Positions 751-59,562 of a DNA stretch of 64,000 nucleotides are shown here, in pieces. The stretch spans positions 395,870,001 through 395,934,000 of the forward strand of contig OZ024740.1 in assembly GCA_964016885.1 (NCBI GenBank), written 5' to 3'. The position numbers and the translations under genes are program-made. Source of the stretch: Eledone cirrhosa. Taxonomy: Eukaryota. Position 1 is the stretch's first letter; every line of letters begins with the position of its first letter. The notes beneath the pieces were generated by a model. The model ran no database searches. It had not been told where the DNA came from and saw only the letters and a list, made by a program, of their open reading frames with translations.

Positions 751-814
751 TTTTCCTAAAAGGACATTATTTTATTCTGAAAATAAAGTTCAATTGTTTA
801 AATTATTAAAAATG

Positions 815-1275
815 ACTTCATCATCATCGTCGTCATCATCTCCATTTAACGTCCATTTTTCCATGCTAGCATGGGTTAGACGAGTTATCCTGTTGTGAGC
901 AATGCCAGGTTAACCGACCATGTCTTGTTCGTACAGAACTGAATTTAGCTTGGTTTCTTCAGCTGGATGACCTTCCTAGCGCCAAACTTATTTTACAGTG
1001 GGTACTTTACAGTGTGGACTGATTGCTTTTTGCCGTGATACCTACATGACAACTTTACAGTGTGGACTGGGTGCTTTTTGCCGTGATACCTACACCACAA
1101 CTTTACAGTGTGAGCTGGGTACTCTTTGCCGTGATACCTACACAACAACTTTACAGTGTGGACTGGGTGCTTTTTTGCCATGTTGCTGTCACAACCACTT
1201 TACAGTGTGGGCTGAAGGCTTCACTGAATGTATGCTTCCACCAGTCCTAATGGGAGATGTATGGGAGTGGGTGGG
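815..1275 (-). mobile_element. RTE-type 3' UTR/SINE-like element with 4-5 tandem ~50-bp modules and (GAT)n tail
   Basis: Tandem actttacagtgtggactgggtgctttttgccgtgatacctacac units at 990-1215; tail shared with the LINE ending at 5418. Confidence 0.75.
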
Positions 1276-1515: not shown

Positions 1516-4500
1516 CTAATCACAAAGTAAAGAAAAGAAATTAAATTACACATAATAATTACACATTGATAATTAAATTCTGGGCAACAGTACCATTCTG
1601 TCTATCAACAGATTTTTCTTTCTAGAATTGTTGAACTTTTAAAGAAATCTTTTGAAAAATTTAATTCACACATTTGTAACAGATATTCATCTAAAGAGAA
1701 AAGAAAGAAATTAACTTACGTAGCAGACACTGGGGGTCCTCAGTCATTGTGATACGCACTGACCACTGAGGGGCTTGGAGGGGGTCAAGGTCACTACAAA
1801 AAATATATCACAGAATGCAACAAAATATTTAAACTTTCATGTTTGGTGAATAATATATAAAGTTATACAGGGTGTTCAGGCTAAATTTGACAGGTTATTT
1901 TAAAGGGAAAAAAGTGAATATCTCAGTCAAAAATAAATTTATTCAAAAAATAGAAAATGGCATAAAGACTAAAATTATCAAAAGAGAAAATTCACTCAAA
2001 GAAGCTACCCTCAGCATCCACCATGTGCTCGATCTGGCTCCGGAATCTGACACATGTGGCCTAGGGAGAACCTCAAATGCCTCCTTAATCCTGTCGATCA
2101 GCTGGGTCTTTGTATTACATACAGTGCAGTTTGTGTCTTTCTCAACTGCGCCTCACACATAATAATCTATAGGATTGAAATCAGGGGAGTTAGGGAGCCA
2201 AACGTTAGGGCTGGTGAAGTCGTAAAAATTCTCTGACAACCACTTCTGAGTCATCCCAGAAGTGTGGCAGGGAGCTGAATCTTGCTGCCACACATATGGT
2301 CTTCCAGAAGCCACCCTCTCCAACCACGGTAATCAGCAGCTCCACATAGCCAGCCGAATTGAACCCAAGACCCTGTTCAAAGATGTGAGGTGGCATGACA
2401 TTATCCTCACTGGCGACTCATCCAAAAACCATTACAGTTTGGGGAAACGTGGTCTTCATGACACGAGGAATGTCATATGGATTATAGGCAAGCCATCTGT
2501 TGTTCTAGGTGTGCACTTAGTCCAGACAAAAGTTCTTTTCATCAGAGAAGAACCAAATTATATATAAATATATGTCATGTTCTGTGTGTGTGTGTCTTCG
2601 TTTCCAGGTCTAACAACTTATATATATATAACAAATTCCCTCACAAGACATCAGTCAGCCCAGGGCTATATTAGGAGATACTTGCCCATGGTGCCACACA
2701 GTGGGAACAAACTTGAAAACACATGGTTCCAAATCAAATTTCTTAACCTGACAGCCATGGTTAATGGGTGGGATGTTGGATGGAGACACAGACAGACAGG
2801 CAAACAAACAGGTCAGCCAACCGACAGACAGAGAGAAGACCAACTGAACGTCTGACAGGCAGGCAAGCAAACAGACAGTCAGATAGATACTCAGAATGAG
2901 ACCACTAAGAGGTTAAATGATATTTAGTAATGGACACAACATAGCCTAAATGACAGGATACAGATCACCCACATTCAAGTTGACAGTCATGCACCCTAAT
3001 GACCCTAATGACCCAAACAGTAGCAACTTTTGAAATCAAATTTAGACCCATGCCAGCATGGAAAAATGGACATTAAATGGTAATGATGATGATTTTGTAA
3101 AAAATAAATTTAAAATCAAATTCATCTCCTGATTAACTCTTATTAGTGATTGAGAAAAATACTTAAATAGGATATTTTAACTATTTTAACTTACGTATAA
3201 ACTTGATTTTCAACAATAATATTCTCTGAAAGACATGGCCAAGTACAAGAGAGATGCAGCTCACTGAAAATTAAAACAAGAAAATGTTAAATGGTTGACA
3301 TTTTATGAGAGGCAATTCAAAGATATTTATTATCTACTTAAACGTAATGGATGTTACACCCTGTAAGATAGATTACTAAATGAGGAGAATGCATGGGAAG
3401 AAGAGACCCTACCCCACGTAGACCCTATAGAGGGACCAGCAGTACAAGTCAGCGGCAGCGTAGTAAGTAAGGCAATCAGAGATATGAAGATAGGGAAGGC
3501 AACCGGTCCATCGGGTATAGCTGCCGAGATGCTGAAGGCATCTGGGTCTGTAGGTCACACTATAACCACACGTATCGTTAACCAGGTAATACTAGAGGGG
3601 GCCATACCAAAAGATTGGTGCAGTAGCATCATTGTCAACTGCTACAAAGGTAAAGGCGATGCACTAGATAGAGGAAACTATAGAGGTATAAAGTTGATGG
3701 ACCAGGTCATGAAAGTAACAGAAAGAGTTATAGCACAGCTGATTAGGGACCGGGTGAATATAGACGAGATGCAATTTGGGTTTGTACCAGGGAAAGGCAC
3801 CACTGATGCCCTCTTCCTTGTGAGGCAATTACAGGAAAAGTACCTAGCTAAAAGTAAGCCACTCTACTTGGCATTTGTCGACCTTGAGAAAGCCTTTGAC
3901 AGAGTTCCACGTGCAGTAATCTGGTGGGCTCTTAGAAAACTAGGAGTAGATGAATGGCTTGTGAAAGCGGTACAAGCCATGTATAGGGGAGCAGTCAGCA
4001 AAGTTAGGATTGGCAATGAGTATAGCGAGGAATTTAGCGTACAGGTTGGGGTCCACCAGGGCTCTGTTCTTAGCCCTCTCCTGTTCATCATAGTCCTGCA
4101 GGCAATAACGGAGGAGTTTAAGACCGGATGCCCATGGGAACTCCTGTATGCTGATGACCTCGCACTCATAGCTGAATCTATGGTAGAACTAGAGAATAAA
4201 TTCCAAACCTGGAAGCAGGGACTAGAGAGAAAGGGCCTCAAAGTCAACATGACAAAGACTAAGGTCCTTGTAAGTAGACGAGAAAACAGAACCCAGATCC
4301 CCTCAGGGAAATGGCCTTGCTCAGTATGTAGGAAAGGTGTAGGTAGGAACTCCATTCTCTGCCCCAAATGCAAACAATGGGTACACAAGAGATGTAGCGG
4401 GATCTCAGGAAGCTTAATTAAGAATGTAGGATTCACATGCAGCAGCTGTGCTGAAACAGCAAGCAAACAGCCACAGGAAACAAGTACCACCAATCTCTGG

Positions 4501-7387
4501 GAGGGCCCTGTAGAAACAGTAGACAGCTTCTGCTACCTAGGTGACCGAATTAGCAACGGAGGTGGGTGCTCAGAAAGTACAATAACTAGGGTAAGAACGG
4601 GATGGAAGAAGTTTAGGGAACTACTACCACTGCTAGCTGCAAAAGGCTTCTCCCTCAGAATGAAAGGCAGACTGTATGATGCGTGTATCCGAACAGCAAT
4701 GTTACATGGTAGTGAGACCTGGGCGCTGAAGGTGGAAGACTTACGTAGATTAGAGAGAAACGAAGCCTGCATGCTCCGATGGATGTGTAACAGTAATATA
4801 CGTGAACGACAAAGCATAAAGGAATTGAGAGAGAGACTGAGCATAAGAGGAATCAAATGCTGCGTGCAGGAGAGGCGGTTACGCTGGTATGGACATGTGA
4901 TGCGTATGAAGGATGACAGCTGCATAAAAAGGTGCAGAGCACTAGAAGTTGATGGAAACCGCGGAGTGGGGAGACCCAAGATGACTTGGGATGAGGTGAT
5001 AAAAGCCGACCTTACCCAACTACACCTCTCAAAGTCAATGACACACGACCGTGACTTCTGGCGTCACGCAGTAATACAGGGTACCCGACCTCCCATGGGT
5101 ACATGCTGAAGCATATAAACAATATGCCCCCCCCCCCCCCCCCCCACCGCAAGGTGGCCGTGGAGGTGCCACGGCAAAAAAGCACCCAGCCCACACTGTA
5201 AAGTGGACGTGTAGGCGCCACGAAAAAGCACCCAGCACTCACTGTAAATGAGGTTGGTGTTAGGAAGGGCATCCAGCTGTAGAAATCAAGCCAGATCAGT
5301 TCCTGTATGAGCAAGGCATGGTCAGCCGACCAGACACTGCCCACAACAGGACAACCCGTCTAACCCATGCTAGCGTGGAAGAACGGACGTAAAACGGTGA
5401 TGATGATGATGATGATGACCCTCATCTCAAACTGCATCCTTAAACTAATAAAGTGACATCTGCACAGGATTTCAACCAGCTAAATCTCCCTCAAATCACA
5501 ACCCACCATCTAAAAAATAGATGGGATAATCATGACTAAAATACCTTTTATCATAAGTCTGCTAAATCAAAATCAGTATGAGGCAAAACCACAACTCCAT
5601 CCCCACAGAACCAGTTAATATAGAATCCACTATGTAGTTAATGTAATATCCAAATCCAGCTTAATGTAATATCCAAATCCCCTTTAACCCTTTAGCATTC
5701 ATATTACTCTATATATACTATTATATTTTCATGGTAAAGGCTTTACCTCGCATAATTATCTCACATAATATCGAATCTATGAGATTTTGAAAGTATTTAT
5801 TTTGAGAACAATACTTTAACATCAGTTTGAGCGATCAGTTACAGCCAGTTTCAACAGAAAGAGGTAGAGAATTCTGGCCGGTTTGAACATTACTCTATAT
5901 ATACTATTGTATTTTTGTGGTAAAGGCTTTATCTTACATATTTATTTCACATAATATTGAATTTACGAGATTTCAATGTTATTTATTTTGAGAACAATAC
6001 CTTAATGTCAGTATGAGCAGCCAGTTACAGTCAGTTTGAACAGAAAGAGGTGAGTGAATTCTGGCCGAATAAGGCCAGTTTAAATATCACCATACTATCT
6101 AAAAAGAGATCTTCTCAACTGAGAAGTTCTAAAATTATGAAAACCATCACCCAAAACTAAAACAGAATAACCATACATAGAATGCTGACATAAAAACACA
6201 GTTTAATCTAATAACTTCAACTCTTGCAGAATTGCTGTGGCTTTATCATCATCCTCATTTCATGTCTGTTTTTCCATACTTGCATGGATGAGATGGGTCT
6301 TCTGCAACAGTGTCGTGCTACTTGCTGCAGTCTTTTGTCATCTTCTTGGCAAGCTTTAGCATACTCAGATCAGTTTTCATCACTTCTTTCCATGCTTTCC
6401 TCTTCTGCAGGTTCCTTCAACTTAATCCTTTAGCATTTACATTACTCTATATTTACTATTATATTTTCATGGTAAAGGCCTAACCTCCTACAATTATCTC
6501 ACATAATATTGAATCTATGAGATATTGAGATTATTTATTTTGAGAACAATACCTTAACATCAGTATGAACAACCAGTTATGGTCGGTTTGAACAGAGGGA
6601 GGTGAGAGAATTCTGGCCGGATATGGCCAGTTTAAATGCTAAGGGGTTAAACTGCTTAGCATTTCTTTAACCAAAGCACGTCTCTAAGATTGTCAAGAAG
6701 GCCGAGGGTGTCTTGGCATCACTCAACAAGACCTTTGTTAGCCGCTCTCCAGCCATCTATTTAAAGCTGTATACAGCTATGGTACGACCACACTTGGAAT
6801 TCGCATCATCAGTCTAGAACTTCTATCTTGCTCAGAACATTGACCTCCTGGAAACTGTTCAGAGACATGCAACCAAGCGCATACCCTCCATCAGACACCT
6901 ACCATACTCTGAACGCCTTGCTTCCCTGGGCATTGATTCATTGAAGCTCCGACGTCTGGCAATGGACTTGGTAAACACCCACAAAGTTATTAACCATCTC
7001 GCCAACAACAACCCTGAGCACCTTTTTGATCTCCATGTGTCTAACACATGTGGACATGCCTACAAAGTCAGAAAACAGCACAACTCCCATGACTTTCGGA
7101 AACATTTTTTCATGCTTAGAGTTGCTGAAGCATGGAACAAACTGCATGTGTCAGTTGTTAGCTGCCGAGACACTGCATCCTTTAAAACCCTCATGCTTCT
7201 CGAAATTTGCCAAAACTACACCTGATGTCCCCCTTCCATACACATACACACATGTATATCATGACTAATGCACTGTTCATTTTCCTGACGTTTGTACATT
7301 ACCCTATGTACTATACATACACTTTTGATGAGTTGTAGTGCACCTGAGCACTGTACACAATATTTTCATTATTATTATTATTGTTGT

Positions 7388-7419
<32 letters not shown>

Positions 7420-10400
7420 TTGTTGCTGCTGCTATTAGTATTATTGTTACTAACAAACATTCAAAAATTTATATGTTAATTGTTAAAAAAAAAAATACAA
7501 CATACTTGACTGGATCTTCACAAGCACCAAATGGTAGCATTCCAAAGCCTGTACATCCTACATCTTCATCTCCCATGATGGAAAAATCTAATTTAAATAA
7601 ATAAAGACAACCAAATAATATTACACTATCTTGTATCATAAAATAGGACATATATTTTATAAAACATTACTGATTTTTTACTTCTTAATCACACAAAAAA
7701 AACACTGCTTTATACGTATATCATTATAGTTTGTATTGTTATATAATTCATATTTACATTTATGGTCTCTTTGGAGTTAAGGTTACATGGATGGCATCCC
7801 CTGGTGTAAGATTTAGCTTTGGTTAGGATGCTCCATTGTAGCATGAGAGATATATTTTTTTCATGCAAGTGCTACTACATGTAGCTGAAAAGTATCATTG
7901 CATCTTTCTAGGCTGGGTTATGAAAGCTATGTTGAAATTGGTAGAATTTAGTTTCGAATTCACAAGCTGTAAATTTGGTTTCATTGTCGCTTTCCTCTTA
8001 TATAACCCACCCACCCCTCCACACACCAGTCAATCAACATATGACTCCACCCCCAATGAGCAGGACTTGGCTGAAATTAACAAAAACCATTTGATTAATT
8101 TCTCATTTTGCTATCAAAATAGTTAAAGCTTAACCATGAAATATTCTATCCTATAAAAATGATACATATAGGACAGTTTTGAGGACTTTGTAAATAGAAT
8201 TGGAATTGATGCAAGTCATGCAGAAGACAGCACTTCTTGGTACAGAAAGGATTTTAAAGAAAGATTTGTGTATATTTGCGTATATAAGTGCCTACAGTCA
8301 GTAGGGACCTCGTAACCAAATATACACCCTAACCCACTACTCCTACTCGATTCTCCCACTCCCACCAACACCACCATTTCTCTGTAAAGTTATGTTGGTA
8401 CCACAACAACCAGTCCAAACTAATGAGGTTGTGTAGGTGTCACAACAAAAAAGCACCCAGTCGACGCTGTAATGTGGCCACGTAGGTAACACAGTAAAAA
8501 GCTCCCAGTCCACACTGTAAATGTGGTTGGTGTTAGGAAGGGCATCCAGCTGTAGAAAACCTGCCAGATATGAAGGCACATGGCTTAGTGGTTAGAGCAT
8601 TGGCCTTGCAATCGAAAGGTTGTGAGTTCAATTCTCAGACCGGGTGATGTGTTGTTTCCTTGAGCAAGACACTTTATTTCACATTGCTCCAGTTTACTCA
8701 GCTGTAGAAATGAGATGATAGGGACTGGGGTCCCTATCATTCCACTGCAAAGTGGTCGTGGAGGTGCCACGGCAAAAAAGCACCCAGCATTCACTGTAAA
8801 TGAGGTTGGTGTTAGGAAGGGCAAATCAAGCCAGAATCAGTTCCTGTCCCACCCTTGCAAGCAGGGAAAAGCGGACGTAAAATGATGATGATGATGATAA
8901 TGAGAGTCCTATACGAGCGAGACACCGTCACCCAACGAATCATGCCTCAAGTAGGACAATTCCTGTCTAACCCATGCTAACGTGGAAGATAGACATTAAA
9001 CGATGATGATGATGAAGGTACAGCAGAGGATGCAGTAAGGGACCTTTGTTGTTGACTGCTCCCTAACTGAAATATCCACATTGTTTAACATCTAAATACC
9101 AGAGATTTACAAAAATGAACCATATTTATATAAAATACTCACCTGGAGGAGTCTGAGGCCACAAAGAATGTGTCCATTCCTCAAGAATGTAAGTAAAACG
9201 AACTGACACGGCAACAGTAGGCAGTGGGTTAATAGCATGACCCTGGGTTAAAGGATTAAAGTAAATAAAAATTAAGAAACTATAACCAATCTCATCAAAA
9301 TACATAAATACACAACAGTGTGTTATCTATATTATGTTAAAGGTAAGTGAAGTGAGGAGCTGTGATTTTAAATTTATAAGGAAACTAAGAACAATGTCTT
9401 TAGTAACTAGAAATTATAATTAGATTATATAATTACTAAGGTAAGTTATTAGTGTCAACCTACAAGTGAAGAGTCAAATATTTGCATTCTGTTACCAGCA
9501 TGGCATTGTGTTGAAAGTCAAGGCATTTCACTTTCACTGATTGAGTCCATGTAGCCAGCCGTCACTGAAATAGTTTTTAATCCCAAATCAACTTTGATTG
9601 AGTTGACTTATGATCAACTAGTCATGACCATCTTGTATTTTTTTTACAACAATAACCAACAAACAATATGAAAGCTGCTGAGATCCATAGTAAAGTTTGA
9701 TACTGATATTTTCTTTAACCTCATTCTATGTTGCCTATATTCATCTTTTATATAACACTTTTGTAATCTATCCAGCTGAATATCAAATTACAATAAAGAA
9801 AAAAGAAGCAACAAAAAAAAACACTGAAAAGTTGTCTAATTTTCACACATCTTGCTTGAGTACAGGAGATATGAAAAACTAAAAATCTAAAATGACAATA
9901 TCATTGCTTTTTTTTAAAATCTCTTCTTGAAAACAGCCAGTTATCTGAAGCTATTTTACAAAAACTCTGATAGATGAAGAATAACTTACTAATTCAGATT
10001 TAAACACATCCAACAAGCCTGCTAAATGATTATACTGTATTGGTAACTTCTTCAAATGAGCCATATCAAATGAGATAGTTGCATTGGGCAACACACTTGT
10101 ACCTAGATACAGCCGACGCCATTTCTGCTGAATCTGTACAAACATGGGCACAGAGCTGAAATAGGATAAAAAAAAATATCATAAAAACTCTAAACAAGTG
10201 ACTGCGATTAGATATTGATACAATAAAGAGAAAAATTCTCAAATATATTTTTTTCTTTTACAACTATACCATCAAATTTTCAAAATTATTCACTTTTATA
10301 TAATTTGTGTGTGCATATATATACTTACACACACATGCATATATATTTATATACATAAATATGCATACACACACATATATACATACATATATTTATAAAT

Positions 10401-13400
10401 ATATTGGCAACAAGTGAAAAAAAACCTCCATGGTCATACACAGTTTCAACCCCTTTTTAAAAGCATCCAAAACTATAATGGTCCCCAGAAGACAGCCAAT
10501 GAGCAGGAATTGTCCATGTATACATGCGTGTGTGTATAATCATCAATGAGAGGATTGCAGTACAGCATTTTTATAAATGTTCACCACACCATACTCATAC
10601 ACATAAACAATTTATATCTATATATGCATGTGTGAGTGTATATATATCATCATCATCATTGCTGTTTAACGTTTATCTTCCATGTTAGCATGGGTCAGAC
10701 GGGAATTGTCCCACTTGAGGCAAGATTGATCGAGTGACCGTGTCTCACTCGTATAGGACTATATCTGGCAGGTTTTCTACGGCTGGATGCCCTTCCTAAC
10801 ACCAACCACATTTACAGTGTGGACTGGGAGCCTTTTTACCGTGTCTCCTACACGACCACTTTACAGCGTGGACTGGGTGCTTTTTTGTTGTGACACCTAC
10901 ACAACCTCTTTAGTTTGGACTGAATGTTCTGTGGTACCAACATAACTTTACAGAGAAAGGGTGGTGTTGGTGGGAGGATGGAGTAGGGGTAGTGAGTTGG
11001 GGTGTATATTTGGCTAAGAGGTGCCTATTAACTGTAGGTTTTATATATATAAATAGTTTATGTGTGTATATATATATATAATTGTTTCTACTTTTGGCAC
11101 AAGGCCAGCAATTGTCCCACTGCATTACTGGTACTTTATTTAATCGACCCCATAGGGATGAAAGACTGTATGCAAACATGAAAAATGTAATGTTAAAACA
11201 ATGATGATGATAATATGGATGAAGATATTAACAGAATATGGATGAAGATATTAATAGAATATGGATGAAGATATTAACAGAATATGGATGAAGATATTAA
11301 CAGAATATGGATGAAGATATTAACAGAATATGGATGAAGATATTAACAGCAACAATGATGATTATGACAACAATGACATCTACCTTTTCAAATTAAAACA
11401 AGATTCTAAATATCATGTCCTATCATAATTGGCACAGTTACATTTTGACTTACCAACCAGTGTTTCCTAGAGCAATGGTTACAGAACTGAGTAATAACTT
11501 GGCACGACTTTCAATATCAATTATATCGGCAGTAGACTTTGGTGAAAGAACAATGAAACTGCGAAGACCATACCTGAAAGAAATATCAGCAGACTAAAAA
11601 ACCATTACAAAACAAAACAAACAACTGAATGGAGATATTAAGTAAATTAACTGTTCAGTTTAAAAAATAACTGACATTTCGATATAACATTAAGAAAAAT
11701 AGGGTCAACAAGGGATCCACTTCATAGTCATTCAACTTGCTAGAAATAGCAGCTAAATTTCCCCCAAATGTCTTACGAAAACGACATTCAGAATAGTGTA
11801 ATCCAAGGTAGATAATGCCTAGAAAAAAAAAGATGTGATGGTCACAGCTGGAATGCCTTTAACCATTTTTCGTACACGTCCCATAGAAACAAAAATAATA
11901 CTCCAAATAATAGTTTCCAGTAACATGTTAATACATGCCTATGTTAGTAGTTTGGTACATTTTTAGATTCACAGCCATATAACTTTTAACCACACTTGTG
12001 CTACTATTGCATCTTTCATTACCATATTTCTAATGAGATATACTGCCAATATGTTTAAAAATAAGCAAGAATCTGGAAACATTTTAATTATTTTTGTTGT
12101 TTTTTGTGTGTGTGTGTGTGTTTTTTTTTCATTTTTTAGCTGGAATTTCTAACATAATTCTAAAAGGATCTTACATAAAATTGTGATGGAAGGATTGAAA
12201 TATAAATACTTTTAAACAAGAGGTTTTGTATCATAGATACCAGAGGCAGTTTCAGGTGGACTGGTTTCAAAAGGATTATAACAAAGATTTAAGTGTCATC
12301 TTATCTCATTCCTTTCCTTATAAATTCATGGATCCAGAGTCTATGTAAGAAATTAGTCAGTTAAATATACATATACACCTCCAATCAACAAAACAAATCA
12401 TTTTTTTTATGAAATCACTATACTATAAATCAAGGCTCTCATATTGATGCTTCAACATTCACATACACTAGAATAACACATCCACCAGAGCATGCTCACC
12501 TAATTTTTGTTCCAATCTTCATAGGTCCTCTGCTTACATGTAGCATTGTCATTTGCACACAAGCATCTTACAATCAGCCTTTTATTCTGAGGGATAAACC
12601 AATTGTGCCCTGAACTTTTTCAAACCACTTCTCATTCTGACTGATGTACTTTCAAAACACCCACTTCTACTACTAATTGGGTCACCCATGTAACAGAAGC
12701 AGTTGGCTACTTCTAAGGAGCCATCTGAGCATTTGATAGAGCATGTTTTATATGAGCTCTTGCTGCTTACTGTTCCTGTGCATCTGCCACATACAAAGCC
12801 TGCATTCTTTGCTAACCTTTCCAAGATCCTGCTACATCCCATGTATCCATAGCTTACATTTTGTACATAGAATGGAACTTCTATGTACTCCTTCCCTATA
12901 TACTGAGAAAAACTATTTCCCTGATGGAAAATTTTTAAAAAAGATAATCAAGAATTTTCTAACTGTTCCATTGTTTTGGGGTTATTTTTGGTATTTTTTT
13001 AAATAAACGGTATATGTATATGTATGTAGGTATGTAAACATTAAACAGAAAACAATACAACATCAAGACTGATGAGAATGAAATAGGAAGGTATCCTCAA
13101 ACCAGAGACCTGGCCCAAATGCTTCCAAAAGTGTGGATTCTGCTAAAGACACCCCTCCCTGGGGTCAAGTGGAGGTGTTAAACTGGGCAGCCAACTAAGT
13201 CTACCACCCAAGTAGACAATGATAAGATTTGAACTCAGAATGCAACGAGCTGGAACAACTACCACAAGTCATCCTATCTGGTGTTCTGATGACTCTGCCA
13301 ATTCACCACTATAGACTAGTGGTAAAGAGTCTTAACATTTTCGTCGTTAGTAATTCATCAGAAAATAGAATGAGAAATAAAAGAAGAAATAGAAAGATAG

Positions 13401-16400: not shown

Positions 16401-19400
16401 CAGCAACTATTCCCGATGGTCCAGCAGCCTTACCATTTTTCATTTCCTTAATCGCCTCTTGGACCCTATATTCGTCAATCTCAATAGCTGGTCCCTCTGT
16501 CAGATCTACTAAGGGTAATTTCTCTCTCTCCCATTCGTTCTCCACATTCATCAGTTTCTCATAATGACATTTCCAGGCCTCCTTTTTCTGATCATTCGTG
16601 ACACTAAGTACACCGGCATCATCCCGGACACATTTATCTCCAACAACATCCTGATTTGCATTGACACATTGCCTTGCAATGTGGAACACCGCACGCCTCT
16701 GATCTTCCGTCGCAGAACATTGGCAAACCTCCTACTCTCCGCCTCCCTGCGTGCTAAGTACACCTGACGTCTAGCTTCTCTCTTAGTGGCTGTATATTCT
16801 TCCCTACTCCCACCCTTTTTCCAATCCTTCCATGCTAGTATTTTGTCTCTAATGGCCTTATCTACTGTGCTGTTCCACCACCAGGTCACTGTCTGGTTGG
16901 AGCTCTGCTCCAGCCACAAGTTTCATCGGTAGCCTGCAGCAAGTTGTCACGTAAGAAATTCCAGTTATTATATATGTCATACGTCTCTAAATCGTCTTCT
17001 TTTTCGTCATATACATCTTGAAGGGCTTTCCTAAATTTGTATTTTAGTGAAAGGTCTTTTAGCTTCCAGACCTTTCTTCTCCACACCTTCCTGTATGTCT
17101 CATTCCATCTCTTGCTTACTGAGATATCACTAACGACTAACCTATGCTGTGGGGTACATTTTTCCCCAGGGTATGCCTTGGTATTAGACACTATCTGCCT
17201 GTCTCGCTGCCTAACTAGTAAGAAGTGAATCTGGCTTATGTGCTCACCAGATTTGTAGGTTATTAGGTGATTGGCAGGTTTCTGGAAGTTTGTGTTGCAA
17301 ATAGTCAATGTACCTGCATCACAAAATTCAAGAAGTCTCACTCCTTCATTTCTTGGGCCGTAACCGTGCCCACCATGTACCCCAATGTAACCATCCTGGA
17401 GCTGTCCAACATGACCATTGAAGTCTCCTGCTAACATAACGATGTCTCCGTCCTCTGTCATTGCGGTTGTTTGTAAAAGTTGCTCGTAAAAGCAGTCTTT
17501 CTCATCTTTGCCTAGGCCTGCTTGGGGAGAATAGGCCAAGATGATTGTCAGTAGTCTCCTGCCTACAACTAATCTAAGCTTAATTATTCAATTACTAACT
17601 CGAACTACCTCTATTGTCTTATTGATCCATTTCTCAGCCAGGAAAGTGCCTACTCCCCCTAACCCATCATCCTTACCTACCCAGAATAGCTTATAGCTAA
17701 GACGTTTGCCTACGACTAGTCTCGCAGAGGCACCTCTCCATCTCACCTCTTGCACGCAGCACACATCCACATGCCTTCTCTCCAGTATCTCCGCTATTTA
17801 AGCAGATCTACCTCTGAGAGTGCCAACATTAAGTGTTGCAACTCTGAGATGCGACGTCTTCATATTTTGTTGTTGTTCCTATTTGTTGCTGTGCTGATAA
17901 GCGTTTTGGCATTGATACACTGGTTGGATGCCCTTCCTAACACCAGCGCCACTTTACACCATGGACTGGGTGCTTTTATTTGTGCCACCATGTGATGTCT
18001 TACTAGACTCAAGGGCCCTCTCTACCCCTCTATTTTACAGCATGGTCATAAAAAAAAACAAAAAAAAACACTTATTGACACGACGCACACACACACACTC
18101 ACACACCAACACTCATGCATACAAACCACAAACACACACACGTCACTCACATACCAACACTCATTCATGCATACAAACACACACACCACTCACAAACACA
18201 CACACACATATATATATATATATATTACTGGCAGTACTGATACAAATACAAAATCAAAATCCTGTCAACTGTTGACTTTTCCCAGTCCAGTTCAGTTTTT
18301 ATATAATAATAATAATAATTGTTTGCTTTACGCTGGTAATGGTGGTGGTGAATGGTGTCAGTATGGTGATGGTGGTGGTGGTGGATGGTCAGTGATGGTG
18401 GTGGTAGTTGTTGTTGCTGTAGTTGCTGTTGCTGTTGTTGTTGTTGTTGCTGCTGCTGCTGCTGCTGCCGTTGTTGTTGTTCTTCATTTCACTGATGTTG
18501 CAGACAATGGTGTTGATGCTGTTATTGTAGTCGCATATATATAAATACATACATACATACACATTCAACACAGACAATGGTGTTGTTGCTGTTGTTGTCG
18601 TTGTTGCTGTTGTTGTTGTTCTTCATTTCACTGCTGCTGATGTTGCAGACAATGGTGTTGATGCTGTTATTGTAGTCGCATATATATAAATACATACATA
18701 CATACACATTCAACACAGACAATGGTGTTGTTGCTGTTGTTGTCGTTGTTGCTGTTGTTGTTGTTCTTCATTTCACTGCTGCTGTTGCTGCAGACAATGG
18801 TGTTGATGCTGTTATTGTAGTCGCATATATATAAATACATACATACACATTCAACACAGACAATGGTGTTGTTGCTGTTGTTGTCGTTGTTGTTGTTGTT
18901 GTTCTTCATTTCACTGCTGCTGTTGCTGCAGACAATGGTGTTGATGCTGTTATTGTAGTCGCATATATATAAATACATACATACACATTCAACACAGACA
19001 ATGGTGTTGTTGCTGTTGTTGTCGTTGTTGCTGTTGTTGTTGTTCTTCATTTCACTGCTGCTGTTGCTGCAGACAATGGTGTTGATGCTGTTATTGTAGT
19101 CGCATATATATAAATACATACATACACATTCAACACAGACAATGGTGTTGTTGCTGTTGTTGTCGTTGTTGTTGTTGTTCTTCTTCATTTCACTGCTGCT
19201 GTTGCTGCAGACAATGGTGTTGATGCTGTTATTGTAGTCGCATATATATAAATACATACATACACATTCAACACACACAATGGTGTTGTTGCTGTTGTTG
19301 TCGTTGTTGCTGTTGTTGTTGTTCTTCATTTCACTGCTGCTGTTGCTGCAGACAATGGTGTTGATGCTGTTATTGTAGTTGCATATATATAAATACATAC

Positions 19401-22400: not shown

Positions 22401-25400
22401 GAAATCCGCCAACACTACTCCTAATATTCCTCCTCCATACACACGCATGTATCTGTGTGTATATCATGACTCATACACTGTTAACTTTCCTGGCATTTGT
22501 ACATTATTCTATGTAGCATACATGCACCTTTGATAAGTTGTAGTGCACCTGAGCACTGTACACAATAATTTTCATTATTATTATTATCTTATTATATATT
22601 ACAATTCTACCTATTAGAGAATGAAACTGTTAGAAGTTAGATATCATCATCAACTTTTTAGAGTCTATTTTGACACGATAGCCTCAGCTGGATGAGTTTG
22701 CAAAATGGTAAATTGTTATAGTTATCAATATGTAAGACCAAATTTCCTGAAATCTCACATTTCTTCCATGTCTTCTCTGAATATTATCAATTCCAACAAA
22801 TGCTGTTTGGTCAAGATGAACAATTTCAACAAATTCAAATTGAACAAATTTATGAAAATTACAAATACCAAATAATATAATTTAAAATGAGAGATTATTT
22901 TGTAAATTTTGTTAGGTCTAAGGTTATAAAAATTTAATAATTTTGAAATAGCAGAAAACTCAAATATAATCAGTTCTAATAAATACAGTTTAACCATTCT
23001 GCAGTATCCCAACCAAATATTAAGAAATTCCAAAATATTTGAAAATTATGAATATTTAGAAATTCTAACAATTTAAAATGATCTCATATTTTAACCAAAA
23101 TTAAACAGGTTATATAAATTAGAAATTCTAAAGAAATTCTGAAAAATGTTAATATATTTTAATAATTCAAGAAATTTTAATATATAGCAGTGGTAGTAGT
23201 TCCCTAAACTTCTTCCATCCCGTTCTTACCCTAGTTATTGTACTTTCTGAGCACCCACCTCCGTTGCTAATTCGGTCACCTAGGTAGCAGAAGCTGTCTA
23301 CTGTTTCTACCAATCTCTGGGAGGGCCCTGTAGAAACAGTAGACAGCTCCTGCTACCTAGGTGACCGAATTAGCAACGGAGGTGGGTGCTCAGAAAGTAC
23401 AATAACTAGGGTAAGAACGGGATGGAAGAAGTTTAGGGAACTACTACCACTGCTAGCTGCAAAAGGCTTCTCCCTCAGAATGAAAGGCAGACTGTATGAT
23501 GCGTGTATCCGAACAGCGATGTTGCATGGTAGTGAGACCTGGGCGCTGAAGGTGGAAGACTTACGTAGATTAGAGAGAAACGAAGCCTGCATGCTCCGAT
23601 GGATGTGTAACAGTAATATACGTGAACAACAAAGCATAAAGGAATTGAGAGAGAGACTGAGCATAAGAGGAATCAAATGCTGCGTGCAGGAGAGGCGGTT
23701 GCGCTGGTATGGACATGTGATGTGTATGAAGGATGACAGCTGCATAAAAAGGTGCAGAGCACTAGAAGTTGATGGAAACCGCGGAGTGGGGAGACCCAAG
23801 ATGACTTGGGATGAGGTGATAAAAGCCGACCTTACCCAATTACACACGACCGTGACTTCTGGCGTCACGCAGTAATACAGGTTACCCGACCTCCCATGGG
23901 TACATGCTGAAGCATATAAACAATATGCCCCCACTCCCCCCACCACAAGGTGGTCGTGGAGGTGCCACGGCAAAAAAGCACCCAGCCCACACTGTAAAGT
24001 GGACGTGTAGGCGCCACGAAAAAGCACCCAGCACTCACTGTAAATGAGGTTGGTGTTAGGAAGGGCATCCAGCTGTAGAAATCAAGCCAGATCAGTTCCT
24101 GTATGAGCAAGGCATGGTCAGCCGACCAGACACTGCCCACAACAGGACAACCCGTCTAACCCATGCTAGCGTGGAAGAACGGACGTAAAACGGTGATGAT
24201 GATGATGATGATGAAGTGATGAAAATTTGAAAATTGACAGGAAGCAAAATGTTCACATTAAACAATTTGAAAATTATCAATCCTAATGTGGTTTAACTAA
24301 AATGAATATGTGATATGTGCCAAACCTAGGCAACAAGGGATTTTATTCTGTTAGTCTATGACTAATTGTATATGGAACAAAATAAAGCATACTTTTATAT
24401 ATTAAATGACCATATTTAATTAGTGTTGTATGAAAATTACATGAATTACTTTAAGGATAATAAATTTAATGTGAATAAAGCAGATAACCAAAGTTTCAAT
24501 GAACAAATGATAAATAAAAGTTTCTAATTAAAAATATATTATTTGAAACAAAAGAAAATGAGAATAATTCATCTAAAGAATTCATCAAAATTCATATATT
24601 CTATAGAAATATTATTTGATAACCAATTGGCTTAGGGAAATGGTACAACACCATGTCTAATTGGTAGAAGTACATCAACATTTTGTAATTAATTAGAAGA
24701 CCTTTGTTGGAAATATATTATATAAGTTATTCTCTAGGTAATTTTCCTTTGAATTTGAGATATTTCTGTGTGATATCCTTTCTAAATTATAAGAAAAGAT
24801 ATTTATTCATAAAATACAAGTAGTATAGTTTAACTCATTAGCATTTACATTACTCTATATTTACTATTCATAGTAAACATTTTATTTCACATAATATCAA
24901 ATCTACGAAATTTTGATGTTATTTATTTTGAGAACAATATCTTAACATCAGTATGAGTAGCTGGTTATGGCCGATTTGAACTGAAAGCGGTGAGAGAATT
25001 CTGACCAGATATGGCCAGTTTAAATGGGTTTAAGTTGTTTTTCAGCAATATGAATTAAGAGCACATCTCTTTTAGAATGAACAACTGAAATTTTTTTTTC
25101 TAAACATGAAATCTAATTCAAACATAATTTCTATTTTAAATTTCCATGAATAATTTAACCACTTTGATGTCAATCTGTCCAAAACTACCTCTGGTTTTAT
25201 GAAACATCAACAACATTTTAAAGGGTTCTTGTAAACCTTTTGTTATGTTATATTAACTTTTTTAATAATAAATAATCAATAATTTTAGTGAATTCCTCCA
25301 AATACTTTATTAACTATTTAATATAGAGAACATTTCACTAGAAATATGGTCACAATAGAATTTATATCTAGTTTTTCTTAACTTTTGCTTATAACATGTA

Positions 25401-26353: not shown

Positions 26354-29300
26354 GATGTATATATTTATATATATATATATATGTGGATGCGACCAGATTT
26401 CAACACAGCAACAACTACAACTACAACAACAGCGACACCAACAACTGGAACAGCAACAACACCATTGTCTGTGTTGAATGTGTGTGTATGTATGTATTTA
26501 TATATATGCGACTACAATAACAGCATCAACACCATTGTCTGCAGCATCAGTGAAATGAAGAACAACAACGGCAGCGGCAGCAGCAACAACAACAACAACA
26601 ACAGCAACTACAATAACAACTACAGCAACAACAACTGCCACCACCATCACTGACCATCCACCACCACCACCATCACTGACCATCCACCACCACCACCACA
26701 CTGACACCACCACCACACTGACACCATCCACCACCATTCACCACCACCACCGCCATTACCAGTGTAAAGCAAACAATTATTATTATTATTATTATTATTA
26801 TATACAAGCTGAACTGGACTGGGAAATGTCAACAGTTGACATGATATTGATTTTGTATTTGTATCAGTACTGCCAGTAATATATTATATATATATATGTG
26901 TGTGTGTTTGTATGCATGAATGAGTGTTGGTATGTGAGTGGCGTGTGTGTGTGTGGTTTGTATGCATGAGTGTTGGTGTGTGAGTGTTGGTGTGAGTGTC
27001 GTGTCAATAAGTTTTTTTTTTTGTTTTTGTTTTTTGGGGTTTTTTTAATGACCATGCTGTAAAATAGAGGGGTAGAGAGGGCCCTTGAGTCTAGTAAGAC
27101 ATCCTCTCTAGTGCTGGTGGCACAAATAAAAGCACCCAGTCCATGCTGTAAAGTGGCGCTGGTGTTAGGAAGGGCATCCAACCAGTGTATCAATGCCAAA
27201 ACGCTTATCAGCACAGCAACAAATAGGAACAACAACAAAATATGAAGATGTCGCATCTCAGAGTTGCAACACTTAATGTTGGCACTCTCAGAGGTAGATC
27301 TGCTGAAATAGCGGAGATACTGGAGAGAAGGCATGTGGATGTGTGCTGCGTGCAAGAGGTGAGATGGAGAGGTGCCGCTGTGAGACTAGTCGTAGGCAAA
27401 CGTCTTAGCTATAAGCTATTCTGGGTAGGTAAGGATGATGGGTTAGGGGAGTAGGCATTTTCCTGGCTGAGAAATGGATCAATAAGACAATAGAGGTAGT
27501 TCGAGTTAGTAATCGAATAATTAAGCTTAGATTAGTTGTAGGCAGGAGACTACTGACAATCATCTCGGCCTATGCAAAGATGAGAAAGACTGCTTTTACG
27601 AGCAACTTTTACAAATAATCGCAATGACAGAGGACGGAGACATCGTTATGCTAGCAGGAGACTTCAATGGTCATGTTGGACAGCTCCAGGATGGTTACAT
27701 TGGGGTACATGGTGGGCACGGTTATGGCTCAAGAAATGAAGAAGGAGTAAGACTTCTTGAATTTTGTGATGCAAGTACATTGACTATTTGCAACGCAAAC
27801 TTCCAGAAACCTGCCAATCACCTAATAACCTACAAATCTGGTGAGCACATAAGCCAGATTGACTTCTTACTAGTTAGGCAGCGGGACAGGCAGATAGTGT
27901 CTAATACCAAGGCATACCCTGGGGAAAAATGTACCCCACAGCATAGGTTAGTCGTTAGTGATATCTCAGTAAGCAAGAGATGGAATGAGACATACAGGAA
28001 GGTGTGGAGAAAAAAGGTCTGGAAGCTAGAAGACCTTTCACTAAAATACAAATTTAGGAAACCCCTTCAAGATGTATATGACGAAAAAGAAGTCGATTTA
28101 AGACGTATGACATAGATAATAACTGGAATTTCTTACGTGACAACTTGCTGCAGGCTACTGATGAAACTTGTGGCTGGAGCAGAGCTCCAACCAGACAGAG
28201 AGTGACCTGGTGGTGGAACAGCACAGTAGATAAGGCCATTAGAGACAAAAGACTAGTATGGAAGGCTTGGAAAAAGGGTGGGAGTAGGGAAGAATATACA
28301 GCCACTAAGAGAGAAGCTAGACGTCAGGTGTACTTAGCACGCAGGGAGGCGGAGAGTAGGAGGTTTGCCAATGTTCTGCGACGGGAAGATCAGAGGCGTG
28401 CGGTGTTCCACATTGCAAGGCAGTGTGTCAATGCAAATCAGGATGTTGTTGGAGATAAATGTGTCCGGGATGATGCCGGTGTACTTAGTGTCACGAATGA
28501 TCAGAAAAAGGAGGCCTGGAAATGTCATTATGAGAAACTGATGAATGTGGAGAACGAATGGGAGAGAGAGAAATTACCCTTAGTAGATCCGACAGAGGGA
28601 CCAGCTATTGAGATTGACGAATATAGGGTCCAAGAGGCGATTAGGGAAATGAAAAATGGTAAGGCTGCCGGACCATCGGGAATAGTTGCTGAGATGCTGA
28701 AGGCATCAGAGGACGTAGGCACTAAACTGGTTGCACGCATCATCAATCAGGCTATATATGGTGGTGTCATACCCAAAGACAGGTGCAGCAGTATTCTCAT
28801 AAATTGCTACAAAGGTAAAGGGGATGCTCTGGAGAGGAGCAATTATAGGGGTATAAAACTGATGGATCAGGTTATGAAAGTGGCAGAAAGGATATTAGCA
28901 CAACTAATTAGAGAAAGGGTCAAACTAGATGAGATGCAGTTTGGTTTTGTGCCTGGGAAGAGTACAACAGATGCCCTCTTCTTAGTGAGACAATTGCAAG
29001 AGAGGTTCTTAGAGAAAAATAAGCCACTATACTTAGCCTTTGTTGACCTAGAGAAGGCCTTTGATAGGGTACCCCGATCTGTCATCTGGCGGTCCCTAAG
29101 GAAGGTAGGTGTTGAGGAATGGCTTGTGAGGACAGTGCAAACTTTGTACAGAAGTACTCTCAGTAAAGTCAGGGTAGGAATGGAGTTTAGTGAGGAATTC
29201 CAGATACAAGTAGGAGTACATCAAGGTTCGGTCCTCAGCCCGCTCTTGTTCATTATAGTCCTCCAAGCCATAACAGAGGAGTTTAAGACTGGCTGTCCAT

Positions 29301-45300: not shown

Positions 45301-48300
45301 TGCATGATGCAATTTTGATGCCAAGAATAAATGTAAATGCTCTGTAATCTTTTATTTTCATGCTGTTTGTTGACTAATTGGCAGAGTCATTAGAACGTCA
45401 GATAGAATCATCATCATGATCATCATTTTTACGTCCGCTTTTCCCTGCTTGCAAGGATGGGACGGGACTGATTCTGGCTTGATTTCTACAGCTGGATGCC
45501 CTTCCTAACACCAACCTCATTTACAGTGAGTGCTGGGTGCTTTTTTGCCATGGCACCTCCACGACCACTTAGCAGTGGAATGATAGGGACCCCAGTCCCT
45601 ATCATCTCATTTCTACAGCTGAGTAAACTGGATCAATGTGAAATAAAGTGTCTTGCTCAAGGAAACAACACATCACCAGGTCTGAGAATTGAACTCACAA
45701 CCTTTCGATTGCAAGGCCAATGCTCTAACCACTAAGCCATGTGCCTCCAGAATGCTTTATGGTATTCTTTCTGGCTCTCTGCTCTCTCAGTTCAAATCCT
45801 GCCAAGGTCAACTTTGCCTTTCATCCTTTCAAAGTCGATAAAAGAAGTACTGGGGTAGATTCTTCCTCTATACCTCTTTCCCATTTCCACTCTCTCACTT
45901 TCTATCTTTCTCTGGAAGAAATCTGCTGTACTCAGGCCTGGAAAGGGATGGGCTCCACCAGGCTAAAAATGCCCAAGAAACGCTGGATGTCAATACGGTG
46001 CCCCTACAACTCTGTCGGGTGTTACGGGACCATAAATATGTTGTCTTATTAACTAGTCAAACCCCAAGTACATCCTGCTCCAATATATTATCTGATGTTA
46101 GAAAACATAAAAGTACAAAAGGTAAGAGAAGTCAAACAGCACAATTGGATATCACAGATTTGACCTACCAAATGCTTACATCAACTCTTCAGAACCTTTT
46201 TTTATTTCAGTTTTTTTTTTATTTCTTTATTTATAAATATTTTCTTTTTGTTTGTTTTTAGTGTTTAAAATTTTTTTAATGAATATTATTATAGATACCA
46301 GTATAAATTCTGTCCATTCTTCAATGTAACGCAACATGAACTGTCTTTGAGATGGAATCCTTACAATGGTATACTTGGGTAAGCTGTTATCCACATCCAA
46401 TCAATAATCATGCTCAAATTTACAATTACCACTCTGCACTTAATATCAATACTTTGTCACCTCATTACCACCAATCACTTAGTAAACTTGATGGATTTTC
46501 CATCAGTTTTTGACGATAAACATTTAGTTATCCAAAAAATTGAATGTTTTTCTTTTTCTTTACCCACATATTCCTGAGAAGGTTGTGCAGTCAGAGTCCT
46601 CAGACACACCTTCCAGGGGGTCCTATCAGAAGCAATCATGTCCAAATAACCTGGCTGGATTCCTGAGCAAGACCAACTAAGCTTTTGGATGTTACCCAAC
46701 CATCTTTCTCATGGGTAACCTGCCAGTTGGCTTTTCTTATAAAATCTGTCCAGTAATTTTATCCATAGACTCTCTGACCATCTGTCCTTCTTGAGCCTCT
46801 TTGAGGTCCTGGTATATGCAGCCTTTGTGTGTCCATTCAACTAAATGTTCTACTCATTAAATTTGTATGTGTCTGAGTATTCCATAGACTTATTTAACGT
46901 TACTATGATTCTCAGGCAGAATCAGCATAACACTATGCGATAAGACTGGGCCTTTCAATTACAAATACATTCCATTTGAGTCTTGTTTATCCAATTTCAC
47001 TCACAAGGCTTGAATTGACATGACGCTATGGTGAAGGACACTTGCTCAAGATGCCACACATTGAGATTGAGTCCAGAACCTCTTGATTGCAAAGTAAAAT
47101 TCTTAGCCATTCAGCTATGCCTGCATCAATTAAACCTATATAAGGTGTTTATGATAAATTACATTGAATGAATATTATATGGTGGTCATGCTTACTACAT
47201 CTGTATGCATATGTGAATAGAGATCAGCTATAAGATCTCATTTCTTAATAAGCACCTGTCCTCAGAACACGAAACATTACAGGATATGTATCAATAATCC
47301 ACACATTTTGTGTATTAAAAGGAGCTGCCATATATGTTAGAAAATTGTGAAATACTATTGATTCTTATTTATGTCTCTGTTAACCATTAATAATTAGTTT
47401 GTAATGAATCAAGACAATCAAAGATTAAAGCTAAACCATCAAAAAAGAATCAAGAAATACAAGCAAAATAAGCCATAAAATAGTGGTGGTCAGAGACACG
47501 GAGGTACATCTGCATTGGGTTTCTTACCCAATATGTCCCTCTTAAGTCCTCATATCCCTCACTCTTACTGCCTAACCCTTATACTAACTACACCATACGG
47601 CCCATGTAATCCAAAGATGGCTTTGAATATACCATTCTCTCTTCCCCACCAGGACACTTACCCACCCATGCTCCTATTTTCTCCACAATACTACCCACTT
47701 AACAAGAAATGTCTTATTCCTACCCATATTCAACATCCATCACCACCACCACCACCATTAAATCAATGCTTGTTCGGTAATCTATTTCTTATATTCACGT
47801 ATCACTTGTATTGTATTTTCAGTGTGTGGCAGAATTGGGAAATTGTTAACAATACATTTACAGCTATGTTATTGAAGGAAGGAGATAAATGTGGTACTGT
47901 CTCACGTGTGACACGGGTAAATATAATACTATGAAAATTTGAAATTCTCTCTCTCTCTCATATAGTTTTTTTCTCTTTAAATGAGACAACAACGATCATT
48001 AATTTGTTTCTTTGTTGGTAGCAGGAGAAGGTGATGCATAGTGTTCAAGATTATTCTAGCTACATTAACAGGAATTCTTATATTTCATACAGGTTATCTT
48101 TGAATGTGCTCCAAAACATCTCCTGAAAAATGTCTCAGAACCTCGAACATGTGAATACCTGTTTATATTCCAAACACCTTTTGTATGTCATCCTAATGCA
48201 ATGTTGGTTTACCCAACACTAGATGCTAATTTAAGAGATGCTTGGGATGAGCTAGAGGGACAATATGTTCGTGAGGAAATCACTAAAAAGGTGAATACAG

Positions 48301-58286: not shown

Positions 58287-59211
58287 CTGTAAAATCATTT
58301 TCCTTCATTTTGAGAAGTATGTGATGCTGGCTCAACATTATTCATTTCTACTGAAAGACTGGAAAAAACAAATTTCAGTCAGAATTCTTTGAAAGAAATG
58401 TTAAATATTGCCAACCCTAATCTTTGGAATTCATGAATGGACAACATATTTATTGGATGTTTATTAAATTTTCTATATTTAACAATAAATATCATTTAAG
58501 TATATAAACTTAAGGTAAAAAATTGACAATGAGTTTGTTCGCTTATTTAAAAGAGAATCTCTCTTGCTCTATTGTCTATATATCATTGTTTAACATCCAT
58601 TTTCCATGCTAGCATGGGTAGTCCCTTTGTGAGAAATCAGGCCAGGTCAAAGGACGTTGATTCGCACACACACAACTGATTTTGGCTTTGATATATATAT
58701 ATACACACAATTTTTCTTCATATACAAACAAGTAGTTGATACACATGTATGGATAATCTTTATCTATGACATGCTATATGGAAGTGAAACAGGACGCTTT
58801 CATCCAAACAACAAAAGCACCTTGATGACACCTACACTCGCCTACTTCAGCACATTCAAAACATAAGCTGGTGACATCTGCCTTTGAGAGAGATATATGC
58901 CAGCCTCCCACGCATATCTGTAAGAGGAGAGTAAGATTTGCTTGCCACCTACAAGGCTGTGTCCACATTCGTGCTTTGGAAACCACAGTCACTAATAACA
59001 GGGGCGCAAGCTCTCCTATCCCGATATCGTCTCCAGAGATTCTGGTATTGAAATCCAAGACTTGGCACCAGCAATGAACAACAGACTCACGTGGAGATCA
59101 ATTGAGTCCATTTTAGCTGATGATGCATGACAACTTTGTGTATTCTAATATTCTAGTTATTAAATCTGCAAATATATCACCATACTTTTCATGATTTTAA
59201 AAGAATACGAT

Positions 59212-59392
59212 GGCACATGGCTTAGTGGTTAGAGCATTGGCCTTGCAATCGAAAGGTTGTGAGTTCAATTCTCAGACCGGGTGATGTGTTGTTTCCTTGA
59301 GCAAGGCACTTTATTTCACATTGCTCCAGTTTACTGAGATGATAGGGACTGGGGTCCCTATCATTCCACTGCAAAGTGGTCGTGGAGGTGCC

Positions 59393-59432
<40 letters not shown>

Positions 59433-59562
59433 CACCCATACTCACTGTAAATGAGGTTGGTTAGGAAGGGCATCCAGCTGTAGAAATCAAGCCAAAAATC
59501 AGTTCCCGTCCCGCCCTTGCAAACAGGGAAAAAGTGGACGTAAAATGAAACGATGATGGTGA
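59212..59562 (+). mobile_element. tRNA/RTE-tail SINE with expanded internal poly(A)
   Basis: Same family as 8575-8903; the internal A6 is expanded to >30 A. Confidence 0.88.

Follow-up and report, generated by a model that had tools for sequence, protein, structure and literature searches.

PK-B, a predicted pseudoknot of about 40 nt that lies a short distance before the start codon of RTE-clade retrotransposons, is a real and probably undescribed RNA motif of these elements, and we consider it a candidate translation element that would position the ribosome at the start site (probability about 0.45). In the window, by which we mean the whole stretch of 64,000 nucleotides of Eledone cirrhosa DNA analysed here, PK-B ends a module that an earlier note had described as an H-type pseudoknot, here called PK-A, followed by a hairpin and a second stem and shared by several retroelements. 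The module is laid out as a 48-nt unit (PK-A plus hairpin), which is repeated, and a single terminal element. All sequences claimed for PK-A are present, at 5157-5186, 8428-8457, 8755-8784, 10905-10876 (minus strand) and 27111-27136, and two further complete copies lie in the window at 23953-23982 and 45563-45536 (minus strand). An H-type descriptor without sequence constraint gave nine matches in the window, seven of which belong to the PK-A family, and the module anchors gave 25 matches against 2.5 expected from shuffled sequence, and 14 against 0.01 expected. The contexts had also been named correctly: an RTE LINE 3' UTR, an RTE LINE 5' UTR and a SINE with a tRNA head. The window contains several LINE fragments, and its LINEs show Pfam RVT_1 and weak Exo_endo_phos_2 matches, a single ORF and GAT tails, which is the anatomy of the RTE clade; we take the clade name from this anatomy and from general knowledge of these elements rather than from a tree with named RTE references. 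Rfam gave no match in the whole window at gathering score, and in E-value mode positions 1-31000 yielded hairpin and tRNA-like matches only and no ribozyme. The features of the window are as follows.

812..1214 (-): older tail in which 4.4 units of 48 nt stand in tandem before a diverged PK-B and an RTE 3' end
3367..5109 (+): 5'-truncated ORF (reverse transcriptase and PHD finger) of family A, an RTE-clade LINE and very young family
5156..5186 (+): family A 3' UTR, PK-A of unit 1
5191..5206 (+): hairpin ending unit 1, with a 4-bp stem and an 8-nt loop
5208..5252 (+): unit 2, a weakened PK-A (stem 1 of 4 bp, C-A mismatch in stem 2) plus hairpin
5255..5293 (+): family A PK-B, comparative fold
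5255-5258/5276-5279, 5261-5275 and 5263-5265/5272-5274 (+): outer stem, single pair and inner stem of this PK-B
5266-5271 (+): its 6-nt loop, with a predicted pairing of the loop GGC to 5290-5292 that spans an A-rich loop
5307..5309 (+): ATG 15 nt past the PK-B crossing stem, opening a frame of only 19 codons
5354..5418 (+): second RTE 3' end captured with the module, a relic ORF end plus GAT tail, 48/57 identical to the family B 3' end
8425..8570 (+): tail of family C, made up of two units and PK-B
8572..8899 (+): SINE with tRNA-like head, body, PK-A (8755-8784), hairpin, deletion-broken PK-B and a tail 52/56 identical to the family B 3' end
10646..10908 (-): tail of family C with two units, stem 2 of one being GGAG/CTCC, followed by PK-B and an RTE 3' end
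17900..17990 (-): another copy of the family B 5' UTR, lacking part of PK-A through deletion
23950..24214 (+): another copy of the family A 3' UTR
27074..27109 (+): family B 5' UTR stretch directly before PK-A, aligned with RTE loci bearing Ceph-type words
27111..27136 (+): PK-A at its native site in the family B 5' UTR
27156..27198 (+): PK-B of the same 5' UTR, its outer stem lengthened to 8 bp
27242..30310 (+): family B RTE ORF, broken in the window copy; an A/C-rich spacer precedes its start codon, which lies 45 nt past PK-B
45407..45749 (-): SINE copy in which both PK-A and PK-B are complete
59205..59564 (+): SINE copy, the A run of its PK-A expanded

Comparative modelling indicates that the terminal element is a second predicted pseudoknot and not the hairpin formed by the second stem of the earlier note. 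For this comparison we used a distant set of 80 RTE loci from metagenome contigs, found by a scan with an endonuclease alignment, 22 of which lacked enough upstream DNA, leaving 58 informative loci; the labels animal-type and plant-type were assigned from named protein relatives, a contig title and a plant MIR-like match. PK-B was recognised in 48 of the 58 (32 animal-type and 16 plant-type, homologous column by column), while seven contained no clear PK-B, and in 32 loci its core lies 415-610 nt upstream of the endonuclease match. In its nested part, a 2-nt bulge separates the outer stem from a single pair, which is followed by a bulged A and then by a 3-bp stem closing a 6-nt loop. Across 33 sequences 90.9% of the alignment cells are paired (92% for the nested part) with 29 double changes, which none of 500 shuffles equalled, and RNAalifold, unaided, returned the same stems except for the single pair. 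We infer the crossing stem from the GGC of the loop, which finds its complement in an invariant GC plus pyrimidine located 9-13 nt past the stem in 31 of 31 loci. The second stem of the earlier note, tested as a conserved fold on 33 sequences, did no better than chance, with 69.4% of cells paired against 68.7% after shuffling and 136 of 500 shuffles scoring as high, and the proposed pairing of its loop with a downstream CCT is not general, being absent in families A and B and in the SINE. Among nested folds, that second stem has the lowest energy in the window 3' UTR copies, and in the window 3' UTR and SINE copies the comparative nested fold is predicted at +0.5 kcal/mol versus -9.3 kcal/mol for the hairpin, with the crossing stem uncounted; in family B the comparative PK-B fold is also the lowest-energy nested fold of the region. 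The element may switch between PK-B and the hairpin.

Phylogeny was taken into account in our own approximation of R-scape, in which column changes were placed at random on the branches of a tree built from the endonuclease (median identity 44%). Among 45 elements the proposed PK-B pairs rank 1, 2, 3 and 5 of 741, and two stem pairs are significant: E is below 0.003 for the single pair, with six joint changes, and 0.037, 0.16 and 0.35 for the others. Since the crossing stem is invariant (C-G in 45/45, G-C in 45/45 and G with C or U in 42/45), the tree-aware test says nothing about it. A flanking pair differs between plant-type and animal-type elements and is unpaired in 9/45, and the loop is invariant within a lineage and different between lineages. 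One locus with a doubtful core (L203) was dropped throughout, L187 was omitted at first and restored for the tree and the tree-aware test, and the latter leaves out L176, which lacks 5' bases, as well as L221, L229, L232 and L237. Seventeen further loci carry a twister-like tail followed by the PK-B columns in other letters, the crossing stem being unclear in one of them (L221). A loose PK-B descriptor proved unreliable: of 17 plant-type loci it resolved 9, including a wrong parse in L223, and its matches elsewhere were unconvincing; a single exact pattern had no match in viral contigs, and the 40 metagenome loci submitted to Rfam gave no match at gathering score.

In the 27 of 31 animal-type loci with an intact frame, the in-frame start codon follows the crossing stem of PK-B at a median distance of 13 nt, and at 8-17 nt in 23; in 22 of the 27 no other ATG comes between the two, while the N-terminal extension up to the endonuclease match varies from 126 to 194 codons. 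The intervening spacer is A/C-rich with 7% G. In plant-type elements, ATGs in frame stand 5 and 11 nt past the stem end. Spacing outliers are found at 20, 20, 22 and 90 nt, and the distance is 45 nt in family B, where an out-of-frame ATG overlaps the crossing stem, and about 65 nt in Perere-3. ATGs occur upstream in 22 of 26 loci, about the random rate in the 200 nt examined, which may include host DNA, and PK-A itself contains an ATG in 8 of the 9 loci with a descriptor match. Start codons stand in an AUGA context in 17 of 26 cases, compared with 131 of 360 internal Met codons; stop-restart translation was considered and rejected, as only 2 of the 17 AUGA loci have an upstream ORF that ends at the start.

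In some lineages PK-B sits directly behind a twister-type ribozyme. Matches to Twister-P1 abut the start of PK-B in L214, L218 and L181 (E 2e-12, 3e-11 and 1e-4, all below gathering score), so that the match ends at PK-B in three of the six loci scanned, and 19 other animal-type loci gave no ribozyme match in Rfam E-value mode. The twister matches lie upstream of the module, which itself matches none of the twister, HDV-like and hammerhead models.

Sequence comparison also places the origin of PK-B in RTE 5' UTRs and gives its sharing among retroelements a direction. The module reads as a fusion of an RTE 5' UTR piece with an RTE 3' end that was joined to other 5' parts, namely the tRNA head of the SINE and the ORFs of families A and C. 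This follows from three observations: the module is native in 5' UTRs, its tails are family-B-like, and the family A leader is devoid of it. In families A and C the module stands 3' of the ORF and is followed by the second RTE 3' end with its relic ORF end. Family C had been considered as the tail of a LINE from another clade, which is wrong; it is an older RTE relative of family A. The 5' parts of family A were examined via stretches neighbouring its copies, and in all four copies that reach the start codon no module precedes it, two of them running more than 1 kb into a tandemly repeated leader. An ATG 15-16 nt after PK-B is found in 13 of 13 family A copies and is likely a relic of the start region of the donor element, and the youth of the family is illustrated by 40 of 40 scored genomic copies that are 100% identical over 5150-5400 (251 nt). 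In the SINE, the tRNA-like head matches Rfam just below gathering score, and a deletion in the copy at 8755 has removed the 3' strand of the stem from its terminal element. Thus the idea of a selected RNA structure exchanged among retroelements stands in so far as the structure is backed by covariation among distant RTE 5' UTRs, whereas the copies in this genome give no covariation and the transfer runs from RTE 5' UTRs to other elements. Among 141 terminal elements, 85 have a same-strand GAT tail downstream, 6 an endonuclease start, 3 solely an antisense upstream tail and 47 none of these; they cluster into groups of 24, 19, 13, 9 and 4 besides small groups and singletons.

Further upstream in the same 5' UTRs, PK-A and the stem that precedes it are modules that need not be present. 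A sequence-free descriptor found PK-A in 9 of the 27 distant loci with enough upstream DNA, compared with 0.43 in shuffles. The distant relatives favour a register different from that of the earlier note, with a stem 1 of 5-7 bp, a 1-nt loop, a stem 2 of 4 bp and an A-rich loop, in which a junction base is able to join either stem. In 13 sequences this register has 92.2% of cells paired and 15 double changes, with 0 of 500 shuffles as high, while the originally proposed one has 89.8% paired and a lower covariation score; the alignment leans towards structure because it was cut around descriptor matches. Double changes affect four of five stem 1 pairs and three of four stem 2 pairs, those of stem 2 coming from two sequences, and stem 1 varies between A-U, G-C, C-G and U-A at non-CpG positions. 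A long stem precedes PK-A in family B and in five distant loci. We aligned the family B stem and PK-A with loci carrying OegopSINE-like or Ceph-type words, the latter taken from the supplement of PMC5786205, with the published consensus compared by eye only, and obtained a mean column identity of 62% and helices in common (87.9% paired, 37 double changes). As the long upstream stem aligns and covarying helices are shared, these alignments make it likely that PK-A forms the tip of a variant Ceph/RTE domain, a domain already known. PK-B lies outside that conserved domain, and a helix at the position of the unit-1 hairpin, directly 5' of PK-B, is common among the distant RTE elements.

Within this genome PK-A behaves differently. 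The C-G to T-A changes that had been cited as compensatory are no more compensatory than chance predicts and behave as CpG decay: among 159 sampled units (non-duplicate, eight duplicates having been left out), those with double CpG decay number 9 with pairing restored and 12 without. Nor did the units show covariation, with no PK-A stem pair among the 15 best mutual-information pairs (n = 159). Exact genome-wide counts, inflated by satellites, are 3,071 for TG/CA, 5,739 for CA/TG, 2,973 for TG/TG and 20,513 for CA/CA, that is 8,810 pairing-restoring states versus 23,486 in the other two. CA/CA, which breaks two pairs, is the commonest double variant and sits in 48-nt arrays; as multi-kb arrays inflate the counts, the unit is amplified as DNA whatever its pairing, and the tandem copies look like DNA-level amplification. 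The earlier figure of one to five tandem copies is right in that tandem copies exist and too low in that 48-nt arrays span several kb elsewhere in the 3.0-Gb genome. A profile of the unit gave 224 matches in 1.46 Mb of sampled genome and none in the reversed sequence. Stem 2 is damaged across whole subfamilies (G-A in 22/158, A-C in 36/159), and the units of families A and C are 77-78% identical, like the spacers.

PK-B has been conserved in the same 3' UTRs. Between families A and C (19 copies, five of 24 family C copies without ORF remains being omitted) its stems are 95-97% identical, compared with 73% for its own loop, 75-81% for the flanks and 57% for third codon positions. Changes that distinguish PK-B subfamilies keep the pairs, including in the SINE, where 19 of 19 copies have no ATG within 30 nt of PK-B. 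Gene conversion among the many copies is an alternative explanation for this conservation.

Under the reading that we favour, PK-B would hold the small ribosomal subunit such that the start codon about 13 nt downstream is read without scanning from the cap, which would permit cap-independent initiation on RNA freed by self-cleavage or read through from host promoters. Ribosome positioning is preferred as the best fit to four features, namely the spacing, the low G content of the spacer, the ATGs upstream and the location behind a ribozyme. The piece made of a 5' UTR end and an RTE 3' end was joined to a tRNA head in the SINE and placed behind the RTE ORF in families A and C, and there PK-A decays and expands as a DNA repeat while PK-B is kept, since ribosome binding is likely, in our proposal, to be independent of position: PK-B could act as a 3' enhancer for the LINE and, in the SINE, as a tether to the ribosomes producing RTE protein. 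Parallels exist in Alu tethering, in the 3' enhancers of plant viruses and in group II intron operators, and such a tether would explain the repeated capture of RTE 5' UTR pieces by SINE bodies. The complete scheme, in which one 40-nt ribosome-binding pseudoknot of animal and plant RTEs would initiate on ribozyme-cut uncapped RNA, work in the 3' UTR and tether SINEs, is taken as a whole rather doubtful.

Several observations speak against positioning. PK-B is retained where nothing is translated (3' UTR, SINE), family A, the youngest, carries no module before its start codon, the spacing has outliers, and in the window 3' UTR and SINE copies the predicted energy is weaker than that of the hairpin. 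It is quite possible that PK-B is instead the site at which the RTE protein binds its own RNA, for RNP assembly or as a 5'-junction signal, and is functional anywhere in the RNA; its place at the start codon would then reflect a switch from translation to copying upon binding there. Such a site would account for the 95-97% identity of the stems in 3' UTRs with lower flanks, for a SINE subfamily that has no start codon and keeps all PK-B stem pairs, for family A having PK-B behind its ORF and none in front, and for a loop that is constant within and different between lineages. It is also in line with the recurrence of RTE 5' UTR pieces in SINE bodies (PMC5786205) and with the binding of the R2 protein to the 5' pseudoknot of R2 RNA (PMC6765202). 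However, a protein site needs neither the 8-17 nt spacing nor a G-poor spacer, and PK-B lies away from the element's 5' end, where junctions form. Protein binding thus explains retention more simply than positioning does, but not the spacing, and both could hold. Of the roles offered in the earlier note, these two, translation element and reverse-transcriptase binding signal, would concern chiefly the terminal element rather than PK-A.

Two other explanations appear weaker. The module could, outside family B, be without RNA function here, hitchhiking with the captured tail and being homogenised by template switching or gene conversion, with satellite-like units and more than 100,000 copies. 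In its favour, genomic units do not covary, the CA/CA variant prevails in the arrays, a 22-nt core of the terminal element has 113,169 exact genome-wide matches, and the hairpin has the better energy in the window 3' UTR and SINE copies. For PK-A this explanation is very likely true. As an account of the module as a whole it is improbable, given that PK-B exceeds both immediate flanks in identity between families A and C and that its subfamily changes keep pairs, and it is silent on conservation in coding RTE elements. More improbable still is that the structures shield an uncapped 5' region from exonucleases, with tandem copies adding protection; compact H-type folds with A-rich loops and the position behind a ribozyme cut in some lineages would suit this role, but it leaves the start-codon spacing and the 3' UTR retention unexplained, the pairs are mostly broken in tandem units, and no Rfam family matches.

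Returning to start-site positioning, the HCV IRES has its pseudoknot near 11-12 nt from the start codon. Type IV (HCV-like) IRESs, the pseudoknot of which positions the nearby start codon on the 40S subunit, resemble PK-B in this short set distance (PMC7354566), whereas PK-B is much smaller, lacks domains II, IIId and IIIe, and shows no IIId GGG loop, IIIe tetraloop or IIIf core in its alignments. No ribosome-contact motif of known IRES classes was identified in PK-B, and no Rfam IRES family matches it in the window or in the 40 metagenome loci. In type 6 (intergenic) IRESs the pseudoknot abuts the first codon and AUG is not needed (10.1101/2024.04.17.590008), while PK-B is followed by a spacer and then AUG. 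The victorivirus stop-restart pseudoknot and caliciviral TURBS are likewise short structures upstream of a start, with an AUGA context (PMC5972666), but the RTE loci are without a conserved upstream ORF that ends at the start.

Among non-LTR elements, HDV-like ribozymes are described in R2, L1Tc and RTE (PMC6765202), and a reporter insert with the Perere-3 twister variant is translated after ribozyme cleavage (PMC8501958). RTE-clade RNA is thus cut at its 5' end and still translated, and PK-B abuts the ribozyme in the three loci named above; the relevant passages of these papers credit the ribozyme fold, whereas PK-B is a separate element between ribozyme and start that occurs also where no ribozyme was detected. 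The R2 5' RNA pseudoknot is likewise near the 5' end of a non-LTR RNA and may have a role in integration, but R2 belongs to another clade with another endonuclease type, and its description in PMC6765202 mentions no fixed link to a start codon. The tail of the module matches the bipartite model of RTE-derived SINEs, in which an RTE 5' UTR piece is joined to an RTE 3' end (Kojima 2018, PMC5786205). That model is presented there as sequence similarity, while PK-A and PK-B are here given folds, and unlike in the SINEs of Kojima, the bipartite piece has here also become the 3' UTR of an autonomous RTE.

We found no account of the PK-B fold in full-text literature or Rfam, most subscription papers lying outside this search, and the supplement text of PMC5786205 showed none of the PK-B words; repeat libraries probably contain the sequence as such already. 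The accounts in PMC8501958, PMC6765202 and PMC5786205 leave open how uncapped ribozyme-processed RNAs are translated and why SINEs retain RTE 5' UTR fragments, and PK-B is one small defined structure in which both questions can be tested by point changes and compensatory rescue. Families A and C, in which PK-B was moved to the 3' UTR and yet conserved, constitute a natural experiment on the role of position. RTE elements are under development as gene-writing tools with cognate UTRs on their templates (PMC13708176), which makes a defined cis element relevant to that field as well. PK-B is apparently also present, unremarked, in the published Perere-3 reporter insert (supplementary table 4 of PMC8501958): compared by eye, the insert has a PK-B-like architecture in other letters behind the twister, in which the inner stem is longer, the crossing stem has 5 bp and the A-rich loop is the same.

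RTE families A and B each encode a PHD finger C-terminal to the reverse transcriptase (window 3367-5109 and 29303-30370), an arrangement also found in most protein relatives. In family A, the young RTE LINE, the leader is new and constitutes a 5' UTR switch. In two sequence stretches carrying this family (L275:1887-2900; L278, reverse strand, upstream of the ORF), it is assembled from tandem units about 400 nt long, with several short ORFs as well as stop-start words immediately preceding the start codon. The 5' junction of one family A copy bears an inverted duplication of 126 nt (window 23185-23380), which forms a long perfect hairpin and scores against plant miRNA models. At window 18439-20334, a 140-nt unit is repeated in about 13 tandem copies; this unit is part of the far 5' region of family B, which carries the module in its 5' UTR, and is common to window 18439-20334 and 26419-26603.

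The 48-nt LINE-tail unit has also given rise to tandem satellites in a searched genomic sequence, G000:C1, with lengths from several kb up to over 10 kb:

about 5,003,180-5,005,990, satellite of the 48-nt unit
about 31,523,120-31,533,800, satellite of the 48-nt unit

In the commonest variant of the satellite unit in these arrays, two stem pairs are broken. Tails of family C, the older relative of family A, likewise form tandem arrays, here of a 112-nt unit that includes the predicted terminal pseudoknot PK-B (sampled genome blocks L141-L150, at about 18.9-19.3 kb of the block).

Among other RTE loci, a metagenome locus (L187:280-400) has a variant of PK-B in which the inner stem shows a double change and the long loop contains an inserted tetraloop hairpin; the crossing stem is retained. 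L189 has, at two sites separate from the ORF, short elements with a PK-B-like core that are not followed by an RTE ORF, which suggests an independent SINE-like capture of this core in another host. The stem-plus-pseudoknot domain, comprising a long upstream stem and the pseudoknot PK-A, is itself tandem in RTE 5' UTRs, in two and three copies (L185:60-209 and L031:6340-6600).

A further LINE type, which has an upstream ORF, is represented in the window by two copies that are 99% identical (41454-43178 and 51118-55024 (-)) and by a decayed one at 6676-7382. A 190-200-nt repeat that has no relation to the module is present in several copies, in part tandem, at 5683-6638 and 24829-25026.
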